Positions 23,709-59,289 are shown, numbered from the stretch's first letter. The stretch is 64,000 nucleotides of DNA from an uncultured Pseudomonadota bacterium (GCA_949296475.1 CASFOK010000002.1:10660-74659); one strand, 5' to 3'. A program made the numbers and translations. Notes: generated from the sequence alone by a model not told the origin.

Positions 23709-24797
23709 ATGACAACAATATCTATAATTGTACCAATATATAATGTAGAAAAATATATAAAACAATGTCTTGATTCATTGGTAAATCAAACATACAAAGA
23801 TCTAGAAATAATATGCATTGATGATTGTGGTACAGATAATTCTATCAAAATCGCACAAAGTTTTGCAGAAAAAGATTCACGAATAAAAATAATTAAACAT
23901 AAAAAGAATTCCGGTATTTCAACAAGTCGTAACACCGGGATAAAAAATTCGTCGGCGCCGTACTTGATGTTTTGTGATCCAGATGATTGGTATGAACCAG
24001 AAATGTGCGAAAAAATGTTACACGCCATAACAAATAACAAAGTGGACTTGGCTATGTGTGGTATTAATGTAATATATGAAACAAATAAAAACCTAAAAAA
24101 ACACGACAAAACTTTTGCAATAAAAAAAGAAGGCGTTTTCAATATAGACAACAATTTTATATTGACACACAAACCTGGGCTGCCTTTTAAAATATTTAAA
24201 AGAGAACTGATAGAATCATATAATTGTAAATTTCCTGACGGGTTGAAATATGAAGACTTATACTTCTTTAACGTTTATTGCTTATGGGCAAAAAAGATAT
24301 ATTTATTAAAGGATAAATTATATAATTATCGCAGACGCCCGAATTCTATTATGAACAAATCTTTCTCAGGCACTACGAATGCATCTTTGGATATGATAAA
24401 AATCGCCATAAAATATTTTGACTATATAAAAGCAAATAATTTATATAAAAAACAATTTGATTATTTTTGGTCGAATTTATTTATTCGCTGTGTCAGAACA
24501 TCATTGACTTTCGCCGTTAAAAACGAATTCAAAGAAGAAATATTTAATTTGTGCAAACAGTTTATTTCGGAAAACTATGACTTTAATAACAAAAACAAAG
24601 AAACCAACGCTTTAATTAACAGTATTTATCATAAACAATTTATGAAGAAACAAAAGAAACTTGGTGGTTTAATATACGAATACAACGACGGTATAAAACA
24701 CAACTATTTACTATTTAACGTGTTTTCTTTATTAAAACGAAAAATAACAGAAAAAAATCAAAAGAAATATTATATATTTAATATAAGAATATCATAA
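23709..24797 (+). CDS. Family 2 glycosyltransferase
   Basis: ISIIVPIYNVEKYIKQCLDSLVNQTYKDLEIICIDDCGTDNS and the DxD-type motif FCDPDD. Confidence 0.85.
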   Translation: MTTISIIVPIYNVEKYIKQCLDSLVNQTYKDLEIICIDDCGTDNSIKIAQSFAEKDSRIKIIKHKKNSGISTSRNTGIKNSSAPYLMFCDPDDWYEPEMCEKMLHAITNNKVDLAMCGINVIYETNKNLKKHDKTFAIKKEGVFNIDNNFILTHKPGLPFKIFKRELIESYNCKFPDGLKYEDLYFFNVYCLWAKKIYLLKDKLYNYRRRPNSIMNKSFSGTTNASLDMIKIAIKYFDYIKANNLYKKQFDYFWSNLFIRCVRTSLTFAVKNEFKEEIFNLCKQFISENYDFNNKNKETNALINSIYHKQFMKKQKKLGGLIYEYNDGIKHNYLLFNVFSLLKRKITEKNQKKYYIFNIRIS

Positions 24798-24818
24798 TCA
24801 TATAAACAGGTTCAAAAC

Positions 24819-25820
24819 ATGAAAATAGATATCGTTTATTTATGGGTAGACAGCGCTGATACAAAATGGCGTTCTTTAAAAAATAAATGGGAAACTATTG
24901 TAAAAGGCCCCAAAAATGTTTCAGAATATGCGTATAATGAATCACGCTGGCGCGATAATGGCGAGTTTAAGTATTCTTTACGTAGCGTAGCGAAACACAT
25001 ACCTTGGGTTAATCATATTTATATTATCACCGGTTTTAATCAGGTTCCAAAATGGTTAAATACAAAACACCCAAAAATAACAATTGTACCACACGAAGAT
25101 ATATTTCCGGCTAATGCATTGCCTACGTTTAATTCTAGTGCTATAGAAATGTGCATACCCAACATAAAAAACCTATCTGAACATTTCTTGCTTATGAATG
25201 ACGACTTGTTTTTTAACCGTGATTTAAAACCGACGTTTTTTTATGACCAACAAGGTCGTGCAAAAGTTTTGTACTCGTCTATGAAAATAAAAAACAAAAA
25301 TATTGGTTTATGGATGGAACAAGAAGACGCTTACACACAAACTCTTATTTTATCTGCAAAAATGATAAACGATGTATATAAAAAAAACGTATATAAATAT
25401 CGTCCATCTCATGGCATAGACCCATACATTAAATCATCCTGGATTCAATGTCGCAATCATCCATTATTCAACAAACAAATTGATTCACAAATATATAACA
25501 AATTCAGAACAAATAACGAAATCCAAAGGTGGATGTTTAATTTATATGATTTAATACATGGAAAAGCCAAATTTTATCATTCCAGGGCAACAAAACATTC
25601 CAAGGTACCTTTTATTTCTTTTTTATATAACACATTATTTTACTTTCAGACCAAACGTTCACCAGTCTATTGTACTGACGCAACCAAAGCAAAAAAGGCG
25701 TTACAACGTGCACCAATTTTTTGCATAAATGATTCTCCGTCTACTGACCAGGTCACACTAGAAAACAATTCTAAATACATGGAAGAAATGTTTCCAGAAA
25801 AATCACCATTTGAAAAATAA
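24819..25820 (+). CDS. Stealth-family protein (capsule/exopolysaccharide hexose-1-phosphotransferase type)
   Basis: CR1-like IDIVYLWVDSAD, CR2-like RWRDNGEFKYSLRSVAKHIPWVNHIYIITGFNQVPKWLN, and CR3-like MNDDLFF. Confidence 0.75.
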   Translation: MKIDIVYLWVDSADTKWRSLKNKWETIVKGPKNVSEYAYNESRWRDNGEFKYSLRSVAKHIPWVNHIYIITGFNQVPKWLNTKHPKITIVPHEDIFPANALPTFNSSAIEMCIPNIKNLSEHFLLMNDDLFFNRDLKPTFFYDQQGRAKVLYSSMKIKNKNIGLWMEQEDAYTQTLILSAKMINDVYKKNVYKYRPSHGIDPYIKSSWIQCRNHPLFNKQIDSQIYNKFRTNNEIQRWMFNLYDLIHGKAKFYHSRATKHSKVPFISFLYNTLFYFQTKRSPVYCTDATKAKKALQRAPIFCINDSPSTDQVTLENNSKYMEEMFPEKSPFEK

Positions 25821-25824
25821 CGTG

Positions 25825-26847
25825 CTATTTACAACTTTTCATAAATTTGCAAATATTACAACGCAGTTTTTTTGTCCATTTATTAGGTGGATTATCAAAA
25901 ACACCTATTTTTTCTAACTCGCAGAAACGTGTACGAGCCACTTCTAAATCTGCATTATTATCTAAATACTTTATTTTTCGGAACGCCCATTTAATAAAAT
26001 ACCATTTAAACTTTTTAGACCACTGACGCATTTGATAATCGTCTGCTTTGTCTTTATACAATAAATAAGAATATTTTATTCCATCGCATAAACTTTGCAA
26101 AATACGAAGTTGTTTTGCTGACAAAACAATGCCACCAAAATTTGGTATATAGAAGTACAAAGGCAATGCACAAATTGTCACGCGCGGATTTTTCAACATG
26201 ATTGCACTCCACCATGGGAAATCTTCAAACAAAATTCCTTTTATAAATGGGGTATCTGCAATCAAATCACGTTTATATAAATTCTTCCACACTTGGCAAT
26301 GTTTTATTAACCATTTTTTATTTGGATTAAATGCATTATGTGCCCGTTCCGTTGCATATGCAAATACATCATCTGTCACCAAAGTTTTTATCTTTGCGGG
26401 ATTATATTTTTTATGAAGTCTTGCCGGTATCACATTATCTGTATCCAGCCCTAATTTATATCGCACCATTAGTTGCGGTCTATATATTCTGTCATATGTA
26501 AAAGACACAATATCAGAATTATCGCGCGACGCCAAATAATGAGTTATTTCCAACGTCTGTGGATGAATAAAGTCATCGCTATCCAAAAACAAAATATAAT
26601 CACCGGTTGCTATTTGCATACCAGCATTTCTCGCATCTGATAAACCACCGTTTTCCTTATTGACTATTTTAAATCTTTTATCACGCGCAGCATATTCAGA
26701 TAATATAACGCTGCTGTTATCCGGACTGCCGTCATTAACACATATCGCTTCCCAATCTTTGAATGATTGATTTAATACGCTGTCCAAGCATCTACGCAAA
26801 TATTTTTCTACATTGTAAATCGGGATTATAACTGAAACAGTGGTCAT
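25825..26847 (-). CDS. Family 2 glycosyltransferase
   Basis: VSVIIPIYNVEKYLRRCLDSVLNQSFKDWEAICVNDGSPDNS and FLDSDD. Confidence 0.85.
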   Translation of the reverse strand: MTTVSVIIPIYNVEKYLRRCLDSVLNQSFKDWEAICVNDGSPDNSSVILSEYAARDKRFKIVNKENGGLSDARNAGMQIATGDYILFLDSDDFIHPQTLEITHYLASRDNSDIVSFTYDRIYRPQLMVRYKLGLDTDNVIPARLHKKYNPAKIKTLVTDDVFAYATERAHNAFNPNKKWLIKHCQVWKNLYKRDLIADTPFIKGILFEDFPWWSAIMLKNPRVTICALPLYFYIPNFGGIVLSAKQLRILQSLCDGIKYSYLLYKDKADDYQMRQWSKKFKWYFIKWAFRKIKYLDNNADLEVARTRFCELEKIGVFDNPPNKWTKKLRCNICKFMKSCK

Positions 26848-43230: not shown

Positions 43231-44859
43231 ATGATACAAGATAAAATGGATTTTTCAATGTATATAAAGAATTTTTTTATTTTATGCTTGATGATATTGA
43301 CCGCTGGTTGCGCCACCAAACAACAAGAATGGCACAGTGAATACGGCACAACTGGAACGCGCGCACCAACAGAAATAATGTACGGATCACCATACGTTAA
43401 AATCGGCAGTCCGGCTGACAATATGGACGGTGCCCCTGTACATAAAATTGCTGTTTTATTACCACTGTCTGGTGAAAACGAAAAAGTCGGCGACACCATC
43501 AGAACATCAATTGAAACGGCGGTATTACAAAACGCCCCACAAAATCTATCTGTATCTTTCTATGATTCTTCTGATGGGATAAATGTAAAAATGCCGGACA
43601 TTTTGGCCGAAAATCCAGAGATTGTTATTGGTCCCGTATTTTCCCAAGACGCCCGAATATTGCGTAGCATAAAGCCAGAAAACTTGCCAGTTTTATCATT
43701 TACATCCGATGCAAATTCTATTGGCAATGGCATTATGACAATGGCTTTGATGCCGACAAATAGCATAGAAGCAATAGTAAAAGAAATGATAAACGATGAA
43801 GTTAGAAATTTCGTGATTATTGCCCCCGATACAGAATCTGGCAAACTAATGGCAGGCACGGCGTTAAGTGCTTCTGAAATATATAATATACCAACTGTTG
43901 GGATATTCTTTTATAAAGAAAACGATTCGGAATCTATAAAAACTACTGCAGAAAAAGCGTCTATGAACGCGGCGCGCGTAGCCGCGAACAACCGCGCGCG
44001 CGAAATTTTATCCGACATAATAACCCAAGAAAGATTAACTGCCGTTGAAAAATCTTCTTTAAACACGCAATTAAATAGATTATCTAAATCCGACACATTA
44101 GGTAATGCACCATATGACGCAGTATTATTTTTAGGTGACGGGAATGATACAAAAACGATTGCTTCATTTCTGCGCTATTACGGCGTTGGCGCAAGGGACG
44201 CACGTTTTTATGGAACTGCTTTATGGGAAGGCTCTGATATAGCAACAGACTTTACCATGCAAGGTGCAAAGTATGCGACACTGCCGGAAATATCACCAAT
44301 GTTTTCAAATATATACGAACAAATGTCTGGTCAAGCCCCGAATCGCCTTGCAACATTTGGTTATGACGCGACGAATATGGCAATTGGTATGATTTATTCA
44401 AATAAATCTGACGCGGCATATTTATTAGACCCCAGCGGATATGTCGGTATAGACGGTTTGTTCAGACTTAAACCAACCGGTGAAAGCGAACGTGCTTTAC
44501 GTATAGTACAAATCACAAACACAGGTACAACACGGGTTGTACGAAACGCCCCCCAAAACTTTATTGCCCCGGTTTATAACATAGAACAACACAAAGTAAA
44601 ACCCGCCAGCGCAATGGATTTGGAAACAAGCGGTATAAATCCAAATGACTATATAAACATTCCAGAAAGACTGCGCAGCAAATACAAATCAAAAACATAC
44701 GGCACTCACATAACCTTGGAACAAGAACAACCCAAGCAAGAAAATATTATCATTTTACCAGAAGACGACAGTGATCCGATAATATCACCGGACTTTCAAC
44801 CTGTCTCCTTGGAATCTGTTAATAAAACTTATATAGACAGCGTGGAAATAGAAGAATAA
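43231..44859 (+). CDS. LpoA/LppC-like lipoprotein (penicillin-binding protein activator family)
   Basis: Lipobox ILTAGC and a periplasmic-binding-protein-like core (IAVLLPLSGENEKVGDTIR). Divergent from rsmI, as yraL/yraM are in E. coli. The start could be one of several Met codons in 43231-43258. Confidence 0.65.
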   Translation: MIQDKMDFSMYIKNFFILCLMILTAGCATKQQEWHSEYGTTGTRAPTEIMYGSPYVKIGSPADNMDGAPVHKIAVLLPLSGENEKVGDTIRTSIETAVLQNAPQNLSVSFYDSSDGINVKMPDILAENPEIVIGPVFSQDARILRSIKPENLPVLSFTSDANSIGNGIMTMALMPTNSIEAIVKEMINDEVRNFVIIAPDTESGKLMAGTALSASEIYNIPTVGIFFYKENDSESIKTTAEKASMNAARVAANNRAREILSDIITQERLTAVEKSSLNTQLNRLSKSDTLGNAPYDAVLFLGDGNDTKTIASFLRYYGVGARDARFYGTALWEGSDIATDFTMQGAKYATLPEISPMFSNIYEQMSGQAPNRLATFGYDATNMAIGMIYSNKSDAAYLLDPSGYVGIDGLFRLKPTGESERALRIVQITNTGTTRVVRNAPQNFIAPVYNIEQHKVKPASAMDLETSGINPNDYINIPERLRSKYKSKTYGTHITLEQEQPKQENIIILPEDDSDPIISPDFQPVSLESVNKTYIDSVEIEE

Positions 44860-50341: not shown

Positions 50342-50593
50342 TTATTTAATTGGCGGAAAGCAACTGTCACCATTTTCAGGGCAACAGTTAAAACCTAGGT
50401 CCCCCATATCTGTAAAAACCTCGCCCGCGCAACAACCATTCTTATCCGGCGCGTTTCCGTCAGGGCAAACAACATCGCTTGTGTTTGTAAGAGAATTTTC
50501 AGCAACGTTTTGCCATAACAACGTTGCCCCCCAACCTATTACTATTCCCAACAACAAAAACAGTAAATACTTTTGCGAAACTGTTATTTTCAT
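50342..50593 (-). CDS. Hypothetical small membrane-anchored protein with a C-terminal 6-Cys domain (P83)
   Basis: TM segment YLLFLLLGIVIGWGATLLW, then CPDGNAPDKNGCCAGEVFTDMGDLGFNCCPENGDSCFPPIK. Confidence 0.6.
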   Translation of the reverse strand: MKITVSQKYLLFLLLGIVIGWGATLLWQNVAENSLTNTSDVVCPDGNAPDKNGCCAGEVFTDMGDLGFNCCPENGDSCFPPIK

Positions 50594-51270
50594 AATGCAT
50601 CACCCGTAGTTATCGGCGGATAACAATCACCGCCATCATCTGGACAACAAGCAAAAATTAAGTTACCCAAATCCTTGAACGTTTCACCCTGACAGCAACC
50701 AAAGCGATTAGGTTTACTTCCATCGGCGCAGAGACCCGCTTCTATATTTGCGGCGACCTGCTCTTCATCTACCTCGTCTATATCTTCGGAAACATCGGTT
50801 TCATTAACAGCACAATCTGCGTCATATTGATCCTGCAACATTGCTTTTTCTTCTGTGCTGCCGGTGGCTACCTCCATAGATTTTTGTAAATCTTTACAAT
50901 TTTGATTTTTCTTAGATAAATATTCATTTAACACTTCTGTTGCGGTTTTAACTTCTACGGTCTGAACATCTTCTGCTGGCTGGGCAACAGGAACGGGGGT
51001 AACAGTTGCCCGACCAGATGTCGAAGTTTTACGTCCGGCAATACTTTTAGAACAATCTTTACGATATCTTTCTTGCAAAGATTTTAATTCTGCAGATACA
51101 GAATCGTCAGGATTTTCAACTGCAGACAGTTCTGATATTTTTTGCTGCATAGTCGGGCAATCCATACGTTCTGCAACATTATTTGCAGTTGCAAAAGTCA
51201 TGCTTGCGTCAAACATTTGCAGACACATTAAAATCGCACCTATAAAAAGACAAATTTTCGCTTTATTCAT
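50590..51270 (-). CDS. Hypothetical secreted protein with two Cys-bracketed modules and a C-terminal 6-Cys domain (P226)
   Basis: Signal peptide MNKAKICLFIGAILMCLQMFDASMTFA and C-terminal CADGSKPNRFGCCQGETFKDLGNLIFACCPDDGGDCYPPI. ATGA overlap with P83. Confidence 0.65.
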   Translation of the reverse strand: MNKAKICLFIGAILMCLQMFDASMTFATANNVAERMDCPTMQQKISELSAVENPDDSVSAELKSLQERYRKDCSKSIAGRKTSTSGRATVTPVPVAQPAEDVQTVEVKTATEVLNEYLSKKNQNCKDLQKSMEVATGSTEEKAMLQDQYDADCAVNETDVSEDIDEVDEEQVAANIEAGLCADGSKPNRFGCCQGETFKDLGNLIFACCPDDGGDCYPPITTGDAL

Positions 51271-52610: not shown

Positions 52611-53321
52611 TTATTTTATTATACCATTTTTTATAGTGATTTGTCTATCGGCACGTGCAGCCAAATTCATATCATGCGTTACAAACAACATTGCCATTTT
52701 GTTTTTACGAACTAAATCCATTAACAAATCAAATACAGTCAAAGCGTGTGCAGGATCCAAACTGCCTGTCGGTTCATCCGCCAGCAATATTTCGGGATTA
52801 TTCGCCAAAGCGCGCGCGACAGCGGTTCTTTGTTGTTCCCCCCCAGACATCTGCCCAGGCAAATGCGACGCCCTGTGAACAACGCTGGCCGCCTGCAGTA
52901 ATTTCATTGCGCGACTGTTTGCTGTATTTTCATCAACGCCGTTTGCCAACATTGGTAAAACGACGTTTTCAAGTGCTGTAAAATCTGATAATAAATTATG
53001 CCTTTGATAAACAAATCCTATTTTTCTTCTGCGCATTAAAGTGCGCATTTCATCATCCATTTTTTGTACGGGCGTTCCATCCAGCAATATGCTTCCCGAT
53101 GTGGGTTTATCCAACAATCCGACGCATTGTAACAGCGTTGATTTTCCACTGCCCGAAGGACCGACCAACGCAATGATTTCACCACGATGTAAATCAAAAC
53201 CGCCACCACGTAAAATATGCAACGGTTGCCCGCCTTCTATGAAGGTCTTTTTAATATCCCGCACAGACAAAACAATGTCAGCCTTGGATACTTTTGATAA
53301 AGAATTTAATATATTCGCCAT
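52611..53321 (-). CDS. lolD: Lipoprotein-releasing ABC transporter ATP-binding protein LolD
   Basis: Walker A GPSGSGKST, signature LSGGEQQR and Walker B LLADEPTG. Adjacent to the LolC/E permease gene. Confidence 0.88.
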   Translation of the reverse strand: MANILNSLSKVSKADIVLSVRDIKKTFIEGGQPLHILRGGGFDLHRGEIIALVGPSGSGKSTLLQCVGLLDKPTSGSILLDGTPVQKMDDEMRTLMRRRKIGFVYQRHNLLSDFTALENVVLPMLANGVDENTANSRAMKLLQAASVVHRASHLPGQMSGGEQQRTAVARALANNPEILLADEPTGSLDPAHALTVFDLLMDLVRKNKMAMLFVTHDMNLAARADRQITIKNGIIK

Positions 53322-53333
53322 TATTTTGTCCCT

Positions 53334-54587
53334 TTACTCGTTTCTTAAAACTTCCACAGGATCTGTGCTGGCCGCTTTCCACGCCGGATAAAGAGTAGCC
53401 AAAAACGCCAACACAATAGCTATAAACGCTATGCCGATAACAGTGCTTGGTACCAGTTTAGAAGGTAATTCCGATAAATAGTATAACTCTGCCGGGAACA
53501 AATCGCGACCGGTGGCCCATTGAAAGAACTGACGAATTGGCTCTATATATATAGCAATCAAAACGCCAAACAACGTTCCAAAAAACGCGCCTATTATACC
53601 GATACTGGTACCTGATAAAATGAATATTTTCATCATAGAACGTCGTGAAACGCCAAAAGTACGTAACACTGCAATATCTTTTGATTTATCTTTAACCAAC
53701 ATAACCAGGCTTGATACGATATTAAAAGCAGCCACAATAACTATCAGCATTAAAATCAAAAACATAACATTTGATTCAACCTGCAAAGCCCCGACAAAAC
53801 CGCGATTTAAATCCCGCCAATCGCGTACGACGAAACCGTCTGGCAGTAATCTTATCAAAGCATCACGCACTTCTTCTGTTTCTTCTGGGTCTTTTAAAAA
53901 TAAATCAATATGTGTAACTGCATTATCAATATTTAAATATTTTTGGGCTGTTTCTAGGGGCATAAATATATATCCCGAATCATATTCGTACATTCCCATA
54001 AAGAACGAAGACATTACTGGATACGCCATAATTCTTGGCATAGAACCAAAAGGTGTGGGCGTTGCACCATTTGCAGATACCAAAGATATATTATCACCCA
54101 TACCAACACGCAAAGCGCGCGTTAACGAAGCACCCGCGACTAATTCACCGTCTGTTATCTTATCCAACGGTTTTCCATAGATTTTCGTACCTGTCGCGGT
54201 TTTCGCCGCCAAATCAGACATTCTTATGCCGCGTATCATCGCCCCCGTATTATTACCATTTGCGGTTGCCATGACCTGCCCTTCGGCAATCGGAACAATA
54301 GACGTTGCGCTATCGGCAACGACTTTGTTTTGTTTCATTTTCTCTATCAAGAAATCGTAATCTGTGATTGCACCGTCTTGATAATAAACAACAACATGAC
54401 CATTCATGCCGACGATACGTGACAACAAAGTATCGTGAAATCCGCCCATTACTGACATGACGACAATCAGAGTTGCCACGCCCAAAGTTATACCTATCAA
54501 AGATACCCACGAAATAACAGAACCAAACCCACGTTTTTTTGCAGATAAATATCTAAAAGCTATTTTTCTTTCTAGTTTTGAAAACAT
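53334..54587 (-). CDS. Lipoprotein-releasing system permease, LolC/LolE family
   Basis: RYLSAKKRGFGSVISWVSLIGITLGVATLIVVMSVMGGF, a MacB-like periplasmic domain and a C-terminal FtsX domain. Confidence 0.88.
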   Translation of the reverse strand: MFSKLERKIAFRYLSAKKRGFGSVISWVSLIGITLGVATLIVVMSVMGGFHDTLLSRIVGMNGHVVVYYQDGAITDYDFLIEKMKQNKVVADSATSIVPIAEGQVMATANGNNTGAMIRGIRMSDLAAKTATGTKIYGKPLDKITDGELVAGASLTRALRVGMGDNISLVSANGATPTPFGSMPRIMAYPVMSSFFMGMYEYDSGYIFMPLETAQKYLNIDNAVTHIDLFLKDPEETEEVRDALIRLLPDGFVVRDWRDLNRGFVGALQVESNVMFLILMLIVIVAAFNIVSSLVMLVKDKSKDIAVLRTFGVSRRSMMKIFILSGTSIGIIGAFFGTLFGVLIAIYIEPIRQFFQWATGRDLFPAELYYLSELPSKLVPSTVIGIAFIAIVLAFLATLYPAWKAASTDPVEVLRNE

Positions 54588-54621: not shown

Positions 54622-55950
54622 TTATTCACTCAAAAAATCGCGCAACGCATCACCAGCAAGCGGCATTTGTGAATTGCCTGACTTTTCTGCATCAACTATT
54701 GATATTATTCGCGGGGACATAAACACAACTAATTCCGCGAATGGGCTTATCAAAGTTTCCGGCGTGGTTACGAACGAGTGTGTTGGAATACCTATTATTA
54801 TATAATTATCGCCGATACTTGACGGGATATTAAACGAAGACAATTCACCGTTGCTTGTACGCAGTACTATCTTGGCATCAATCTTATCACGACCACCAAA
54901 GTCACCGTATTTTGCGGTCGCGCCTATAATCAAGTCAGTTTCCAACCTATCTTCTTTGCTACATTGCCCGATATCAAAACGTGACTGCCAACCATTAGGA
55001 ATGACAAAACGTCCTTGGGATATCAACACAACGTTTGCTTGCTGCGACAAGAATTCTTGCAGGGTCTTGGTATTAATTTCAGGACTTACCACTAGTGCGC
55101 GCCCCACGATTCCAGGAATTGACATTTTTATATTATTATCACCGAACGCCGGCAACAAGTTCATCCATATAATCGGGTTGTCTGTACGGGGATATACGCG
55201 GTATACATCAATATCCCACGCTAACATATATTTCTTTGACGCTATATCGGAAATTATTTTTGCAACTTCACGTTCTGTCTGATAATTCCCCTCAAAGACA
55301 ACTGTTTTATCTTGCCAATCAACCAACAAATTGCGCATATCGGCGCCATGCATAGCATCCAATAAAGCCATAACAATGTTTTCATCTTTTGGCATTTTTA
55401 CCATCCACTTTGCGCGATGGTTTAAGTGAATTTCACCGGCAGCCGCATCATAAGAATAATAAACCCGCCCCATTTTTGCCATCAATTCAACGGCATCAGA
55501 TAAACTGCCTGACGAAATAGAACCCGAAATTTTTTCTATTACTTCCTCATCTTCAACCACAGATATATCTGTACCATCCAACAACCTATCCAAAGCCTGT
55601 TTTACGGTTAACTGTTTAAAATCGTAATCAGAAACGTTTAATTCTGGTAAATCGTCACCTACCCCTAAACGCACGATTTCTATTTTTTCTTCTGGTACGA
55701 CCGATATTACAGTTTGGTTATCCCAATTCACCTCGCACCTTTTGGGTAAATCAATAGAAAATCTTCGCGCGGTATCTGTTGTTAACGCGGCTTTCTTAGG
55801 AAAGATAGGAACAGAATTTTCATCAATGACGAAGTTTTCTACTACATTGATGGTATCATATTGTTGTTGCTGCGTTTGCGCGGTTTGATTGGCGCAACTT
55901 GTTAAAAATCCCAACGCAATCAAAGCAAATAATTTTTTTAATATCATCAT
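54622..55950 (-). CDS. Hypothetical outer-membrane lipoprotein, secretin-like at the C-terminus (tentative)
   Basis: Lipobox ALGFLTSC. Central AWDIDVYRVYP and C-terminal ...NYIIIGIPTHS...AELVVFMSPRII resemble secretin C-domain strands (viGGl ... eLlifitPriv). The usual P.LG.IP.LG.LF motif is absent. Confidence 0.35.
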   Translation of the reverse strand: MMILKKLFALIALGFLTSCANQTAQTQQQQYDTINVVENFVIDENSVPIFPKKAALTTDTARRFSIDLPKRCEVNWDNQTVISVVPEEKIEIVRLGVGDDLPELNVSDYDFKQLTVKQALDRLLDGTDISVVEDEEVIEKISGSISSGSLSDAVELMAKMGRVYYSYDAAAGEIHLNHRAKWMVKMPKDENIVMALLDAMHGADMRNLLVDWQDKTVVFEGNYQTEREVAKIISDIASKKYMLAWDIDVYRVYPRTDNPIIWMNLLPAFGDNNIKMSIPGIVGRALVVSPEINTKTLQEFLSQQANVVLISQGRFVIPNGWQSRFDIGQCSKEDRLETDLIIGATAKYGDFGGRDKIDAKIVLRTSNGELSSFNIPSSIGDNYIIIGIPTHSFVTTPETLISPFAELVVFMSPRIISIVDAEKSGNSQMPLAGDALRDFLSE

Positions 55951-55986
55951 ACTTTCCTTTCTCTTCTTTTCGTTTATATCACGATA

Positions 55987-56313
55987 TCAAATATTCATAA
56001 CCCTTTCAAATTCTTCAAGAGTCATTTCATATATTGGTTTTTGTGTTGGTGTGGTTAAATTTTGAACTTTTTTATATCTTTCTTCAAATTTCTTTATTAC
56101 AGCAACCACTTCTGCGGGCACAGTAATAGACTTATCTGCCATTAATCTTCGTCCGTATTCATAAACGAACTCTAAGGTATCGGCTGCAAAAAAACGTCCT
56201 ACATAATTTTCCATAGCGATACCGCCTTTCTCAACGCAAATAGCAGACATCATCATTGCCATTTGATTATAAAAATTTGCCAACTTAATAAAGTTTTGAA
56301 CTGTTATTGCCAT
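55987..56313 (-). CDS. Hypothetical 108-aa cytoplasmic protein; first gene of the minus-strand block
   Basis: ORF with AGGA 8 nt upstream of the ATG at 56313. No recognisable motif. Confidence 0.5.
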   Translation of the reverse strand: MAITVQNFIKLANFYNQMAMMMSAICVEKGGIAMENYVGRFFAADTLEFVYEYGRRLMADKSITVPAEVVAVIKKFEERYKKVQNLTTPTQKPIYEMTLEEFERVMNI

Positions 56314-57513: not shown

Positions 57514-59289
57514 ATGAACTTATTTGATTCGTCTTTTTTATGTCTTGATATAGGTACCAGCGGTGTACGCGGGATTGCACATCGCGTTCGCTCTGGACGA
57601 ATAGACCGTTCTGCGGTATACGCCGTAGACAGTTTTGATACAACTTTTGCTCTAAAATCTACAATTGACGAACTAGAACGTCAAATAGGTTCACATTTTG
57701 ACTCTGCATATATAACTGGTAATTTCGGTCCTGCTTTGTTTGAAATGGTGGCAAAAAGCACTACATGGAACAACGAACATAAAATAAACACATCGGATAT
57801 AAAAAACCAAATTTCACAGATTACAGCGCCAGAAAACTTTTATCCTATGCATATAATACCTTTGCGATACGATACGCCCAGCGCAAGAAACATGTTTTCA
57901 CCAATTGGTCACACAGACAGACAATTAATTTCTGCGTTTGGTGCCGTTTTTTACAGCAAACCTGAATTAGATAAAATGTTTTCCACACTACGTCGGGCGC
58001 ATATTCAATCAGACGCATTATATGACCCACAATATTTACTAAATGCAAGTTTTCGTAAATTAAAACAAAACACTTTATTTATAGATTTTGGTGCACAATT
58101 CACAAGCGCATCCATTTGGACAGACCGTGGCCCTGTATGGTATGAAAAATTAGAACACGGCGGAACAAATATAAGTTTAGATATTTCAGAACAATTAAAC
58201 ATAGATTTTGACGAAGCCGAACGCATAAAACGCAATGTATCCAGTTTGATTCCCAAAGAAATGGACCGCTTTACGCCGGCAGATACAGCTTATGAGTTTT
58301 CTCGCGCAGACGTAAACGATATTGTTTTACCACATATCGTAGATATAATTGCGGAAATAAAAGAAAAATGCACAAATGCGTTTTCAAAATATCGTCCTGT
58401 GCAGATAATAATAACTGGTGGCGGTGCAAATATTGAATCTATGCCCGAATTTATAGAAAACGCGTTTAATTTACCAATAAAAAACCTGCATTCTGATGCA
58501 ACTGTTCGTGCATTATCTTCTTATATTTGGGACGGCGAATCAGAACATCGTCAATCATACATGGCCAGAAAACAAAGATGGGGCAACATAACAAAAAAAT
58601 TAAATATGTTGTTTAAAAGGCGTCACAAAAAACAACAGTTTTTTGTACCAATTTTACCAAGCACGCTTTGCTTTAATATGAAAAGCCCTGTAACATATTC
58701 CATGTTTAAATCCAGTGGCATATCAATGATTCACGTGGACATCATGGACGGTTTTTACGTTGATAGAATCGCCGGCAGTATAAACGAATTAAAATACATA
58801 CGTTCCCACACAGACGCGCATTTGCATGTACATCTTATGACAGAAAGCCCATCTGTTTGGGCCCAAGACGCAATCAGCGCAGGTGCAGACACAATAATAG
58901 TTTCAACTAACACTTCCGGTTTACGAGACGCGTTACGATTAATAAAATCTGCATCACGTCGCGCCGGTGTTGCTCTTAATCCAGATTCGTCTGTTGAAAT
59001 TTTAAAACCGATTTTGCGTGAAATTGACGAGATTATGATAATGACAGTAAAACCGGGGGCCGCCGGACAATCCTTTAACGAGTCTTGTTTAAAGAAAATT
59101 TCCGTTCTTTCGGCAACCAGAAAAAAATATGGCTTAAAATATACAATTTCGGTTGACGGCGGCATAAATCCAGAAACCGCAAAAAAGTGCTGGGATGCCG
59201 GCGCCGATTTATTGGTCTGCGGTTCATACTTAGCAAAAAGTCGCGATTTTCCCGTCGCCGTTCAAAAATTATTAAAACAACCAAGATAA
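57514..59289 (+). CDS. ftsA-rpe: FtsA-like cell division protein fused in frame to ribulose-phosphate 3-epimerase
   Basis: Residues 1 to about 365 show the actin-like FtsA motifs LCLDIGTSGVRG, FIDFGAQFTSASIW and IIITGGGANIESMPEF. Residues about 380-591 are Rpe-like: ILPSTL, HVDIMDG, HVHLM, MTVKPGAAGQ, SVDGG and CGSYL. No stop codon lies between them. Confidence 0.8.
   Translation: MNLFDSSFLCLDIGTSGVRGIAHRVRSGRIDRSAVYAVDSFDTTFALKSTIDELERQIGSHFDSAYITGNFGPALFEMVAKSTTWNNEHKINTSDIKNQISQITAPENFYPMHIIPLRYDTPSARNMFSPIGHTDRQLISAFGAVFYSKPELDKMFSTLRRAHIQSDALYDPQYLLNASFRKLKQNTLFIDFGAQFTSASIWTDRGPVWYEKLEHGGTNISLDISEQLNIDFDEAERIKRNVSSLIPKEMDRFTPADTAYEFSRADVNDIVLPHIVDIIAEIKEKCTNAFSKYRPVQIIITGGGANIESMPEFIENAFNLPIKNLHSDATVRALSSYIWDGESEHRQSYMARKQRWGNITKKLNMLFKRRHKKQQFFVPILPSTLCFNMKSPVTYSMFKSSGISMIHVDIMDGFYVDRIAGSINELKYIRSHTDAHLHVHLMTESPSVWAQDAISAGADTIIVSTNTSGLRDALRLIKSASRRAGVALNPDSSVEILKPILREIDEIMIMTVKPGAAGQSFNESCLKKISVLSATRKKYGLKYTISVDGGINPETAKKCWDAGADLLVCGSYLAKSRDFPVAVQKLLKQPR

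Follow-up and report, generated by a model that had tools for sequence, protein, structure and literature searches.

A predicted six-cysteine C-terminal domain with two subtypes on envelope proteins of an uncultured alphaproteobacterial lineage

Here, we describe a small cysteine-rich module encoded in a 64-kb window of DNA from an uncultured Pseudomonadota bacterium, a gut alphaproteobacterium with a small genome, the window being the whole stretch that was analysed (64,000 nucleotides; GCA_949296475.1 CASFOK010000002.1:10660-74659). Two adjacent, overlapping minus-strand genes, P226 (226 residues; 50590..51270, -) and P83 (83 residues; 50342..50593, -), encode proteins that both end with a tail of about 40 residues holding six cysteines in the arrangement C-x10-CC-x14-CC-x6-C. 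By regular-expression match and subtype profile, the tail of P83 (CPDGNAPDKNGCCAGEVFTDMGDLGFNCCPENGDSCFPPI; 50348..50467, -) was assigned to type A of the module and that of P226 (CADGSKPNRFGCCQGETFKDLGNLIFACCPDDGGDCYPPI; 50611..50730, -) to type B. Judged from sequence, the module is a genuine, lineage-specific and previously undescribed extracytoplasmic domain family, divided into two subtypes. The family falls within the broad known kind of small cysteine-rich extracytoplasmic modules, but has no detectable relative. A sequence-only reading of the same DNA had pointed to a shared six-cysteine mini-domain in these two genes, and the open reading frames (ORFs), their ATGA overlap and both motif sites proved to be as it described. 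Beyond that reading, the module falls into two distinct subtypes and is also carried by VirB10-like and other envelope proteins.

Six-frame translation of the window gave exactly two matches to the strict motif of the sequence-only reading, at 50348-50467 (-) and 50611-50730 (-). When P83 and P226 were compared by BLASTP, the tails alone aligned (47% identity over 51 residues, E=9e-17), and these are therefore homologous rather than similar by chance. A search with P226 recovered 88 proteins of 140-248 residues, none of which has a Pfam annotation; the few that are named come from metagenome-assembled genomes (MAGs) of an 'Alphaproteobacteria bacterium'. Their N-terminal parts are 27-49% identical to the window protein, and hardly any variation is seen in the last 45 residues. 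Furthermore, a 43-position tail profile run against 1.84 billion cluster representatives matched 260 clusters at E<=1e-3, of which 129 also pass E<=1e-10, and in almost every case the match lies at the very C-terminal end. The resulting consensus reads C-x7-10-GCC-x2-E-x-[FY]-x-D-x-G-x3-F-x-CC-P-x5-6-C-[FY]-P-P-[ILM], with a cysteine spacing across instances of C-x7-10-CC-x14-CC-x5-9-C. All six cysteines are present in 392 of the 400 aligned instances (proteins and loci together), the remaining eight being truncated alignments or one frameshifted gene; natural variants that lose cysteines in pairs were not encountered among the 400, the six being invariant. Invariant acidic and aromatic residues are E18, D22, F/Y20, F28 and F/Y39; histidine and CxxC-type spacing are absent from the module. 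In 186 of 319 cases the last copy ends five residues past its final cysteine, and nearly all copies in this position end within ten; internal copies also occur, with up to three modules per protein.

Known families were searched at several levels. Neither P83 nor P226 matched Pfam or NCBIfam, 28 isolated domain sequences gave no relevant Pfam family at E<=10 (Granulin included), and the domain profile found no PDB sequence at E<=10. A Foldseek search of the PDB returned no match at E<=0.001; its best six matches include four granulins, all insignificant. The sequence-only reading had recognised no described bacterial domain in the pattern, in agreement with the empty Pfam, NCBIfam and PDB sequence searches. 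Its proposal of a knot-like domain found no support, as the cysteine framework of the inhibitor cystine knots or knottins (C-C-CC-C-C) differs and no knottin appears among the Foldseek matches at E<=10. The C-terminal sorting domains (PEP-CTERM, GlyGly-CTERM, LPXTG and the C-terminal domain of the type IX secretion system) were also rejected, given the internal copies, a '[FY]PP[ILM]K' tail that lacks a hydrophobic helix, and the lack of a match to any NCBIfam sorting domain.

AlphaFold2 predicts the module confidently, with a predicted local distance difference test score (pLDDT) of 87-94; the value exceeds 90 within full-length P226 and is 86.7 for the module alone. The model places one β-hairpin between the two CC doublets. 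For P226 as a whole, the mean pLDDT is 78, with the helical hairpins and the tail above 90 and helices 38-49 and 56-73 at 94. Extracytoplasmic cysteines are even in number in P83 (6), in P226 (10) and in the products of the neighbouring genes P227 (4), P204 (4) and P291 (6), and the count is likewise even in 82 of the 88 P226 homologues. Because of these even counts in the exported proteins of the operon and in the homologues, three disulfides in the module are plausible, and the invariance of its six cysteines is a further indirect sign of them. In the two-cysteine helical hairpins of these proteins, the cysteines are predicted to lie at the hairpin ends.

The module always follows either a signal peptide or a single N-in transmembrane segment. 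P83 is a predicted small bitopic inner-membrane protein (N-in, C-out), and a hydropathy scan finds one hydrophobic segment in it, residues 9-27 (YLLFLLLGIVIGWGATLLW; 50513..50569, -; mean Kyte-Doolittle value 2.07). K2 and K8 precede this segment and all six cysteines follow it, which bears out the earlier assignment of the P83 module to a membrane anchor. P226 is a predicted secreted periplasmic protein with a signal-like N-terminal segment ahead of its ten cysteines. Its parts run from the signal peptide through a cysteine-bounded helical hairpin (residues 35-80; 51031..51168, -), in which C38, C73 and R80 are invariant, and a GRK motif, which reads GRR in most homologues, to an acidic linker, a short helix and the type B domain. 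Within the linker lies a second cysteine-bounded hairpin (residues 110-158; 50797..50943, -), which many homologues lack. The P226 module had been said to follow a long acidic secreted region; secretion is supported by the signal-like segment, but the region is not a mere linker, as one or two confident cysteine-bounded hairpins lie within it. P226 and P83 were called with identical limits by an independent gene caller on public contigs. The stop codon of P226 and the start codon of P83 share four nucleotides as ATGA (junction GCA TTA TGA AAA), the 3′ end of P227 overlaps the start of P226 by eight nucleotides, and P291 starts 15 nucleotides past the P83 stop codon.

A scan of one genome per GTDB species with a back-translated DNA motif yielded at least 120 stretches in at least 105 assemblies. 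Homologues with the motif are plentiful away from this locus, and neither of the outcomes that the sequence-only reading had named as refuting it, a match to a known cysteine-rich domain or a motif confined to the locus together with a poor predicted structure, was observed. Among the matches listed, the carriers are, with one exception, MAGs of uncultured bacteria from gut, rumen or other sources that bear the labels Alphaproteobacteria, 'proteobacterium' or 'Rickettsiales'; many belong to Candidatus Enterousia of the order Rs-D84. The exception is a contig of a Bacteroides fragilis-labelled bin (L113 7615-7998, -; guanine-plus-cytosine (GC) content 48%), whose VirB10-type tail is almost the same as the one at the alphaproteobacterial locus L068; this contig is probably mis-binned. 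The lineages of the carriers span a GC content of 38% to 55%, the locus L129 standing at 55%. Viral contigs gave no match to the motif, and the locus is present in DNA metagenome runs only. Genomes of the order Rs-D84, Candidatus Enterousia included, have been reported to measure about 0.7-1.6 Mb and to lack the TCA (tricarboxylic acid) cycle and respiratory chains, and the bacteria are thought to be partner-dependent (PMC12306168).

The carriers fall into five classes: (i) P226-like secreted proteins; (ii) P83-like mini-anchors of 72-99 residues, consisting of a transmembrane segment and the domain; (iii) VirB10/TrbI-like proteins of about 800 residues with the domain at the very end; (iv) proteins of 700-870 residues with a cytoplasmic coiled-coil, one transmembrane segment, a long acidic/Pro-rich linker and the domain, whose genes adjoin gcrA; and (v) small secreted proteins that combine a single helical hairpin with the domain. 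The mini-anchor genes lie directly 3′ of P226 or, in other genomes, of an LppC/LpoA-like lipoprotein gene. The latter order was seen at the loci L009, L053, L071 and L083; in the window, the LppC/LpoA-like gene (43231-44859) is directly followed by argS.

Of the 62 long carriers in species-representative genomes, about 53 are VirB10/TrbI-like and nine belong to the coiled-coil family. The former are encoded in virB8-virB9-virB10 strings, with the genes for VirB8 and VirB9/CagX upstream. This class assignment concerns long carriers of related genomes, not genes of the window, and relies on Pfam TrbI matches of E=1e-14 to 1e-18 in P0149, P0166, P0186 and an L068 ORF; NCBIfam T4SS_VirB10 gave a domain-level match in the long carriers that stays under the equivalog cut-off. 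The VirB9/CagX homologues of the lineage (L068 1645-3180, +; L118 3239-4699, -) have an extra C-terminal SPOR-like segment, which for L068 matches Pfam SPOR at E=6e-4, just under the family cut-off. The virB8-9-10 string of L118 adjoins nusG-rplK-rplA and has no virB11 after it. The coiled-coil family (P0142, P0150, P0169, P0183) adjoins gcrA in both loci examined (L070 515-3312 and L129 2348-5519); P0142, P0169 and P0183 matched nothing in Pfam or NCBIfam except for one low-complexity Pfam match of P0169. We take the combination of coiled-coil, transmembrane segment and six-cysteine domain to recall polarity factors such as PodJ, by analogy only.

Column profiles split the module into the two types, and the window holds one copy of each. 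Type A is marked by D10, N12, Y/F20, T21, M23, G27 and N29, has a mean net charge of about -6.6 and has no preceding element. Type B is marked by K8, N10, K/R11, F12, F20, K21, V27 and A29, has a mean net charge of -2.4 and is preceded by an 'ANL-x-AGLC' helix. Type A occurs in carrier classes ii to v and, at internal positions, in some P226 proteins; type B, together with its 'ANL-x-AGLC' helix, occurs only as the final domain of the P226 family. The two types are old paralogous flavours of one domain.

Among species-representative loci, a type A mini-anchor gene lies immediately downstream in 20 of the 27 loci whose P226 protein carries type B only. In seven of these 20 loci the four-nucleotide ATGA overlap recurs, in support of the earlier claim that P226 and P83 are translationally coupled. 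In addition, natural fusions place type A inside P226 ahead of type B, as in P0042, or in the order A-A-B, as in P0089. None of the seven loci with such a fused P226 has an adjacent P83 gene, compared with 20 of 27 for the B-only loci (Fisher p=6e-4, kinship ignored). Since the same two types are found either fused or encoded side by side, the classical fusion argument points to a physical or functional association between A and B.

Furthermore, type A caps inner-membrane-anchored proteins, and type B ends the soluble periplasmic P226 family. The reading that we favour, still tentatively, is that of a docking module of the periplasm, stapled by disulfides, whose types A and B associate with each other, P226 being thereby tethered to membrane anchors, a VirB10-like ring among them. 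The six cysteines would form three disulfides that staple the module, and type A tails would attach to the type B tail at the end of P226, perhaps also to one another. P226, P227, P83 and P291 would be made in a fixed ratio from their overlapping or closely spaced genes. Once tethered to its membrane anchors, P226 could connect machines of the envelope, the type IV secretion core for instance. An extended form of this reading, which we regard as unlikely, is a lineage-specific periplasmic A/B docking code, whereby P226, as a type B scaffold, would capture the type A tails of the VirB10 ring, of the gcrA-adjacent polarity-factor-like bitopic protein and of mini-anchors whose genes adjoin the Lol and LpoA-like genes. 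If true, the code would wire secretion, polarity and wall or outer-membrane biogenesis into one envelope network in probably partner-dependent bacteria with genomes of about 1 Mb.

Several points weigh against docking. The contrast between the fused and the B-only loci carries no correction for phylogeny, and the fused forms may represent a single clade. No adjacent P83 accompanies seven of the 27 B-only P226 genes. Both types are net acidic, so that charge complementarity is partial only. The reported lack of respiratory chains in the lineage (PMC12306168) puts the source of periplasmic disulfides in question. In the Pfam annotations that cover about 1-42 kb and 49.5-62 kb of the window, as in Pfam and NCBIfam scans of ten ORFs at 48.3-56.3 kb, no Dsb-like gene was found; these scans did not extend to about 42-48 kb or to the final 2 kb. 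Finally, synteny is generally static in reduced genomes; the neighbourhood with lolCDE probably reflects such inheritance, in line with the equivalog-level match of lolCE and the retained position of ftsQ and ftsA, and says little on function.

The best-surviving alternative, which we consider possible though somewhat improbable, is an independent ligand-binding domain. Each copy would bind the same envelope constituent other than a protein, or the same ion, for instance Ca2+/Mg2+, peptidoglycan, lipopolysaccharide or a further outer-membrane component, so that C-termini would be anchored at one layer without any binding between A and B. This would suit a module at the extreme C-terminus of unrelated proteins after long flexible acidic/Pro-rich linkers, and carriers that span the envelope (VirB10-like) or are encoded beside an LpoA-like gene. 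The invariant acidic and aromatic residues (E18, D22, F/Y20, F28, F/Y39) and the very acidic type A point in the same direction, and small Ca-binding or sugar-binding cysteine-rich modules have similar residues. However, an acidic module fits anionic peptidoglycan or lipopolysaccharide poorly unless a cation bridges the two, and the VirB9 of the same systems already has a SPOR-like tail. Ligand binding also leaves unexplained why two subtypes are conserved with strict architecture rules, and why fusion and adjacency exclude each other.

A metal-thiolate domain is a good deal less probable. Here the six cysteines would stay reduced in an anaerobe without quinone-linked oxidation and would bind Zn, Cu or Fe, the module being either a metal-dependent fold or a buffering or sensing tail. 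This explanation gains weight because respiratory chains, and hence the standard DsbB route, are absent in the lineage (PMC12306168), and it agrees with the lack of a Dsb gene in those parts of the window with recovered Pfam content. Di-cysteine motifs are known as high-affinity Zn ligands in other proteins (PMC6255694). On the other hand, cysteine counts are even in all exported proteins of the operon, and these include two-cysteine hairpins, which resemble disulfide staples and not metal sites. The absence of histidine and of CxxC-type spacing from the domain and its confident folding by AlphaFold2 without a ligand also argue against metal binding.

A role as a C-terminal signal for sorting or processing is very unlikely; a dedicated machine, perhaps the P442 lipoprotein or the LolCDE/MacB-type transporter encoded nearby, would read the module and export or attach the carrier. 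The position of the last copy, so close to the C-terminal end, and the constant location of P226 downstream of P442-lolCE-lolD would fit such a role. The presence of up to three copies per protein, some of them internal, and of the module on stably membrane-anchored structural proteins such as VirB10 does not. In addition, lolCE passes a curated equivalog threshold and looks like a housekeeping gene, and the module has no hydrophobic or basic tail, as known sorting signals typically do. A secreted cysteine-rich toxin, bacteriocin or host-acquired granulin-like effector, exported by the adjacent ATP-binding cassette (ABC) transporter, matches the small size, the cysteine richness, the insignificant granulin hits at the top of the Foldseek list and the lower-scoring matches of LolD to bacteriocin-export ABC models, but is largely refuted and highly improbable given the lack of a Pfam Granulin match in the 28 domains, an hhalign probability of 1.7% against human granulin A, the fusion of the domain to VirB10-like and other structural proteins, the absence of the motif from viral contigs, and the labelling of all carriers but one, among the matches listed, as Alphaproteobacteria or Proteobacteria.

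The remaining genes of the cluster share features with P226. P227 (51263..51946, -) encodes a bitopic protein with cysteine-bounded helical hairpins, P204 (51968..52582, -) is its paralogue (BLASTP 33% identity, E=1e-33), and P291 (49452..50327, -), the last gene of the cluster, is a more distant paralogue. All three products are bitopic proteins made of helical hairpins bounded by cysteine pairs, and the N-terminal hairpin of P226 resembles this unit. The unit, which has no Pfam match, appears to be a second lineage-specific module. A P227-like gene precedes the P226-like genes in essentially all related loci, and a counterpart of P291 was found in many.

Upstream of the P226 cluster, the same gene string contains lolD (52611-53321, -; best match TIGR02211, 248 bits, under the cut-off of that model) and lolCE (53334-54587, -; NCBIfam TIGR02212, 416 bits against a cut-off of 362). 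A 227-residue ORF without a Pfam match lies between lolCE and lolD in L003/L004 (6009-6692, +), and several other loci have a similar gap. Next comes P442 (54622-55950, -), which encodes a lipoprotein with an LTSC lipobox and a weak match to STN (secretin/TonB N-terminal); its C-terminal part is secretin-like by eye. A homologue search with P442 gave 1250 unnamed lipoproteins and yielded no functional clue; the best 120 of these 1250 are all at least 79% identical and have no Pfam match. A PDB sequence search with P442 and P227 gave no match. The P442 gene always lies directly upstream of lolCE. P442 and P108 (together 54622..56313, -) are highly conserved lineage-specific genes at the head of the string, and wherever the flank is covered, P226-like genes lie downstream of P108, P442, lolCE, lolD and a P227-like gene. 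Synteny in relatives extends to the divergently oriented neighbours ftsQ and ftsA. The latter (57514-59289, +) encodes a 591-residue protein in which FtsA is fused to a ribulose-phosphate 3-epimerase domain (Pfam FtsA and Ribul_P_3_epim), a fusion that is kept, at 56-78% identity, in all related loci reaching the gene. The rest of the window consists of housekeeping genes, including those for SecDF, MutL, FtsK, RecA, MltA, RuvABC, ArgS and UvrB. At 24000-26000, the GC content falls to 0.295 across glycosyltransferase and Stealth-family genes, which may form an acquired surface-polysaccharide cluster.

Rs-D84 comprises widespread uncultured gut and rumen bacteria whose envelope and surface proteins are almost entirely unannotated (PMC12306168). 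An invariant domain on several proteins per genome, a VirB10-like core protein included, is likely to be central to building the envelope in these bacteria, and it may also matter for contact with a partner. What is new is a domain family that is confined to one uncultured lineage of Alphaproteobacteria, where it has also been recruited to a core protein of type IV secretion. The finding provides a clean definition of the family with its two subtypes and a marker for the lineage, and the small module, predicted confidently by AlphaFold2, is well suited to expression and to tests of disulfides, metal and partner binding.

Compared with known systems, the module shares with granulin/epithelin (PF00396) a small size, cysteine richness, CC doublets flanking β-hairpins and the local strings 'CPDG..CC' and 'CCP..G..C'. 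Granulin has 12 cysteines with spacings of x5-8 in the pattern C-C-CC-CC-CC-CC-C-C, whereas the module has half that number arranged around CC-x14-CC. Together with the absent Pfam match and the hhalign probability of 1.7%, this makes the resemblance a weak likeness and not membership. The LDL (low-density lipoprotein)-receptor class A modules of about 40 residues are similar in size, in their six cysteines, in strong acidity and in modular use at linker ends, but they have no CC doublets, gave no Pfam match and are not among the ten best Foldseek matches. As a functional analogy only, the cohesin-dockerin system also uses short C-terminal modules on unrelated proteins with a cognate partner on a scaffold, type A corresponding to the many carriers and type B to the one scaffold family. 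Dockerins are extracellular and based on Ca-binding EF-hands, whereas the present module is periplasmic and cysteine-based; the two are related neither in sequence nor in fold, and the pairing proposed here is drawn from fusion and adjacency. In the outer core of the Agrobacterium type IV secretion system, VirB7 and VirB9 are joined by a disulfide. The likeness lies in periplasmic cysteines of core subunits that stabilise or assemble an envelope complex, the cysteine-rich tail here being on a VirB10-like subunit. Thus, in comparison with Agrobacterium, a different subunit is concerned, a whole six-cysteine domain takes the place of single cysteine residues, and, unlike VirB7-VirB9, the module is also found on proteins without a known role in secretion.
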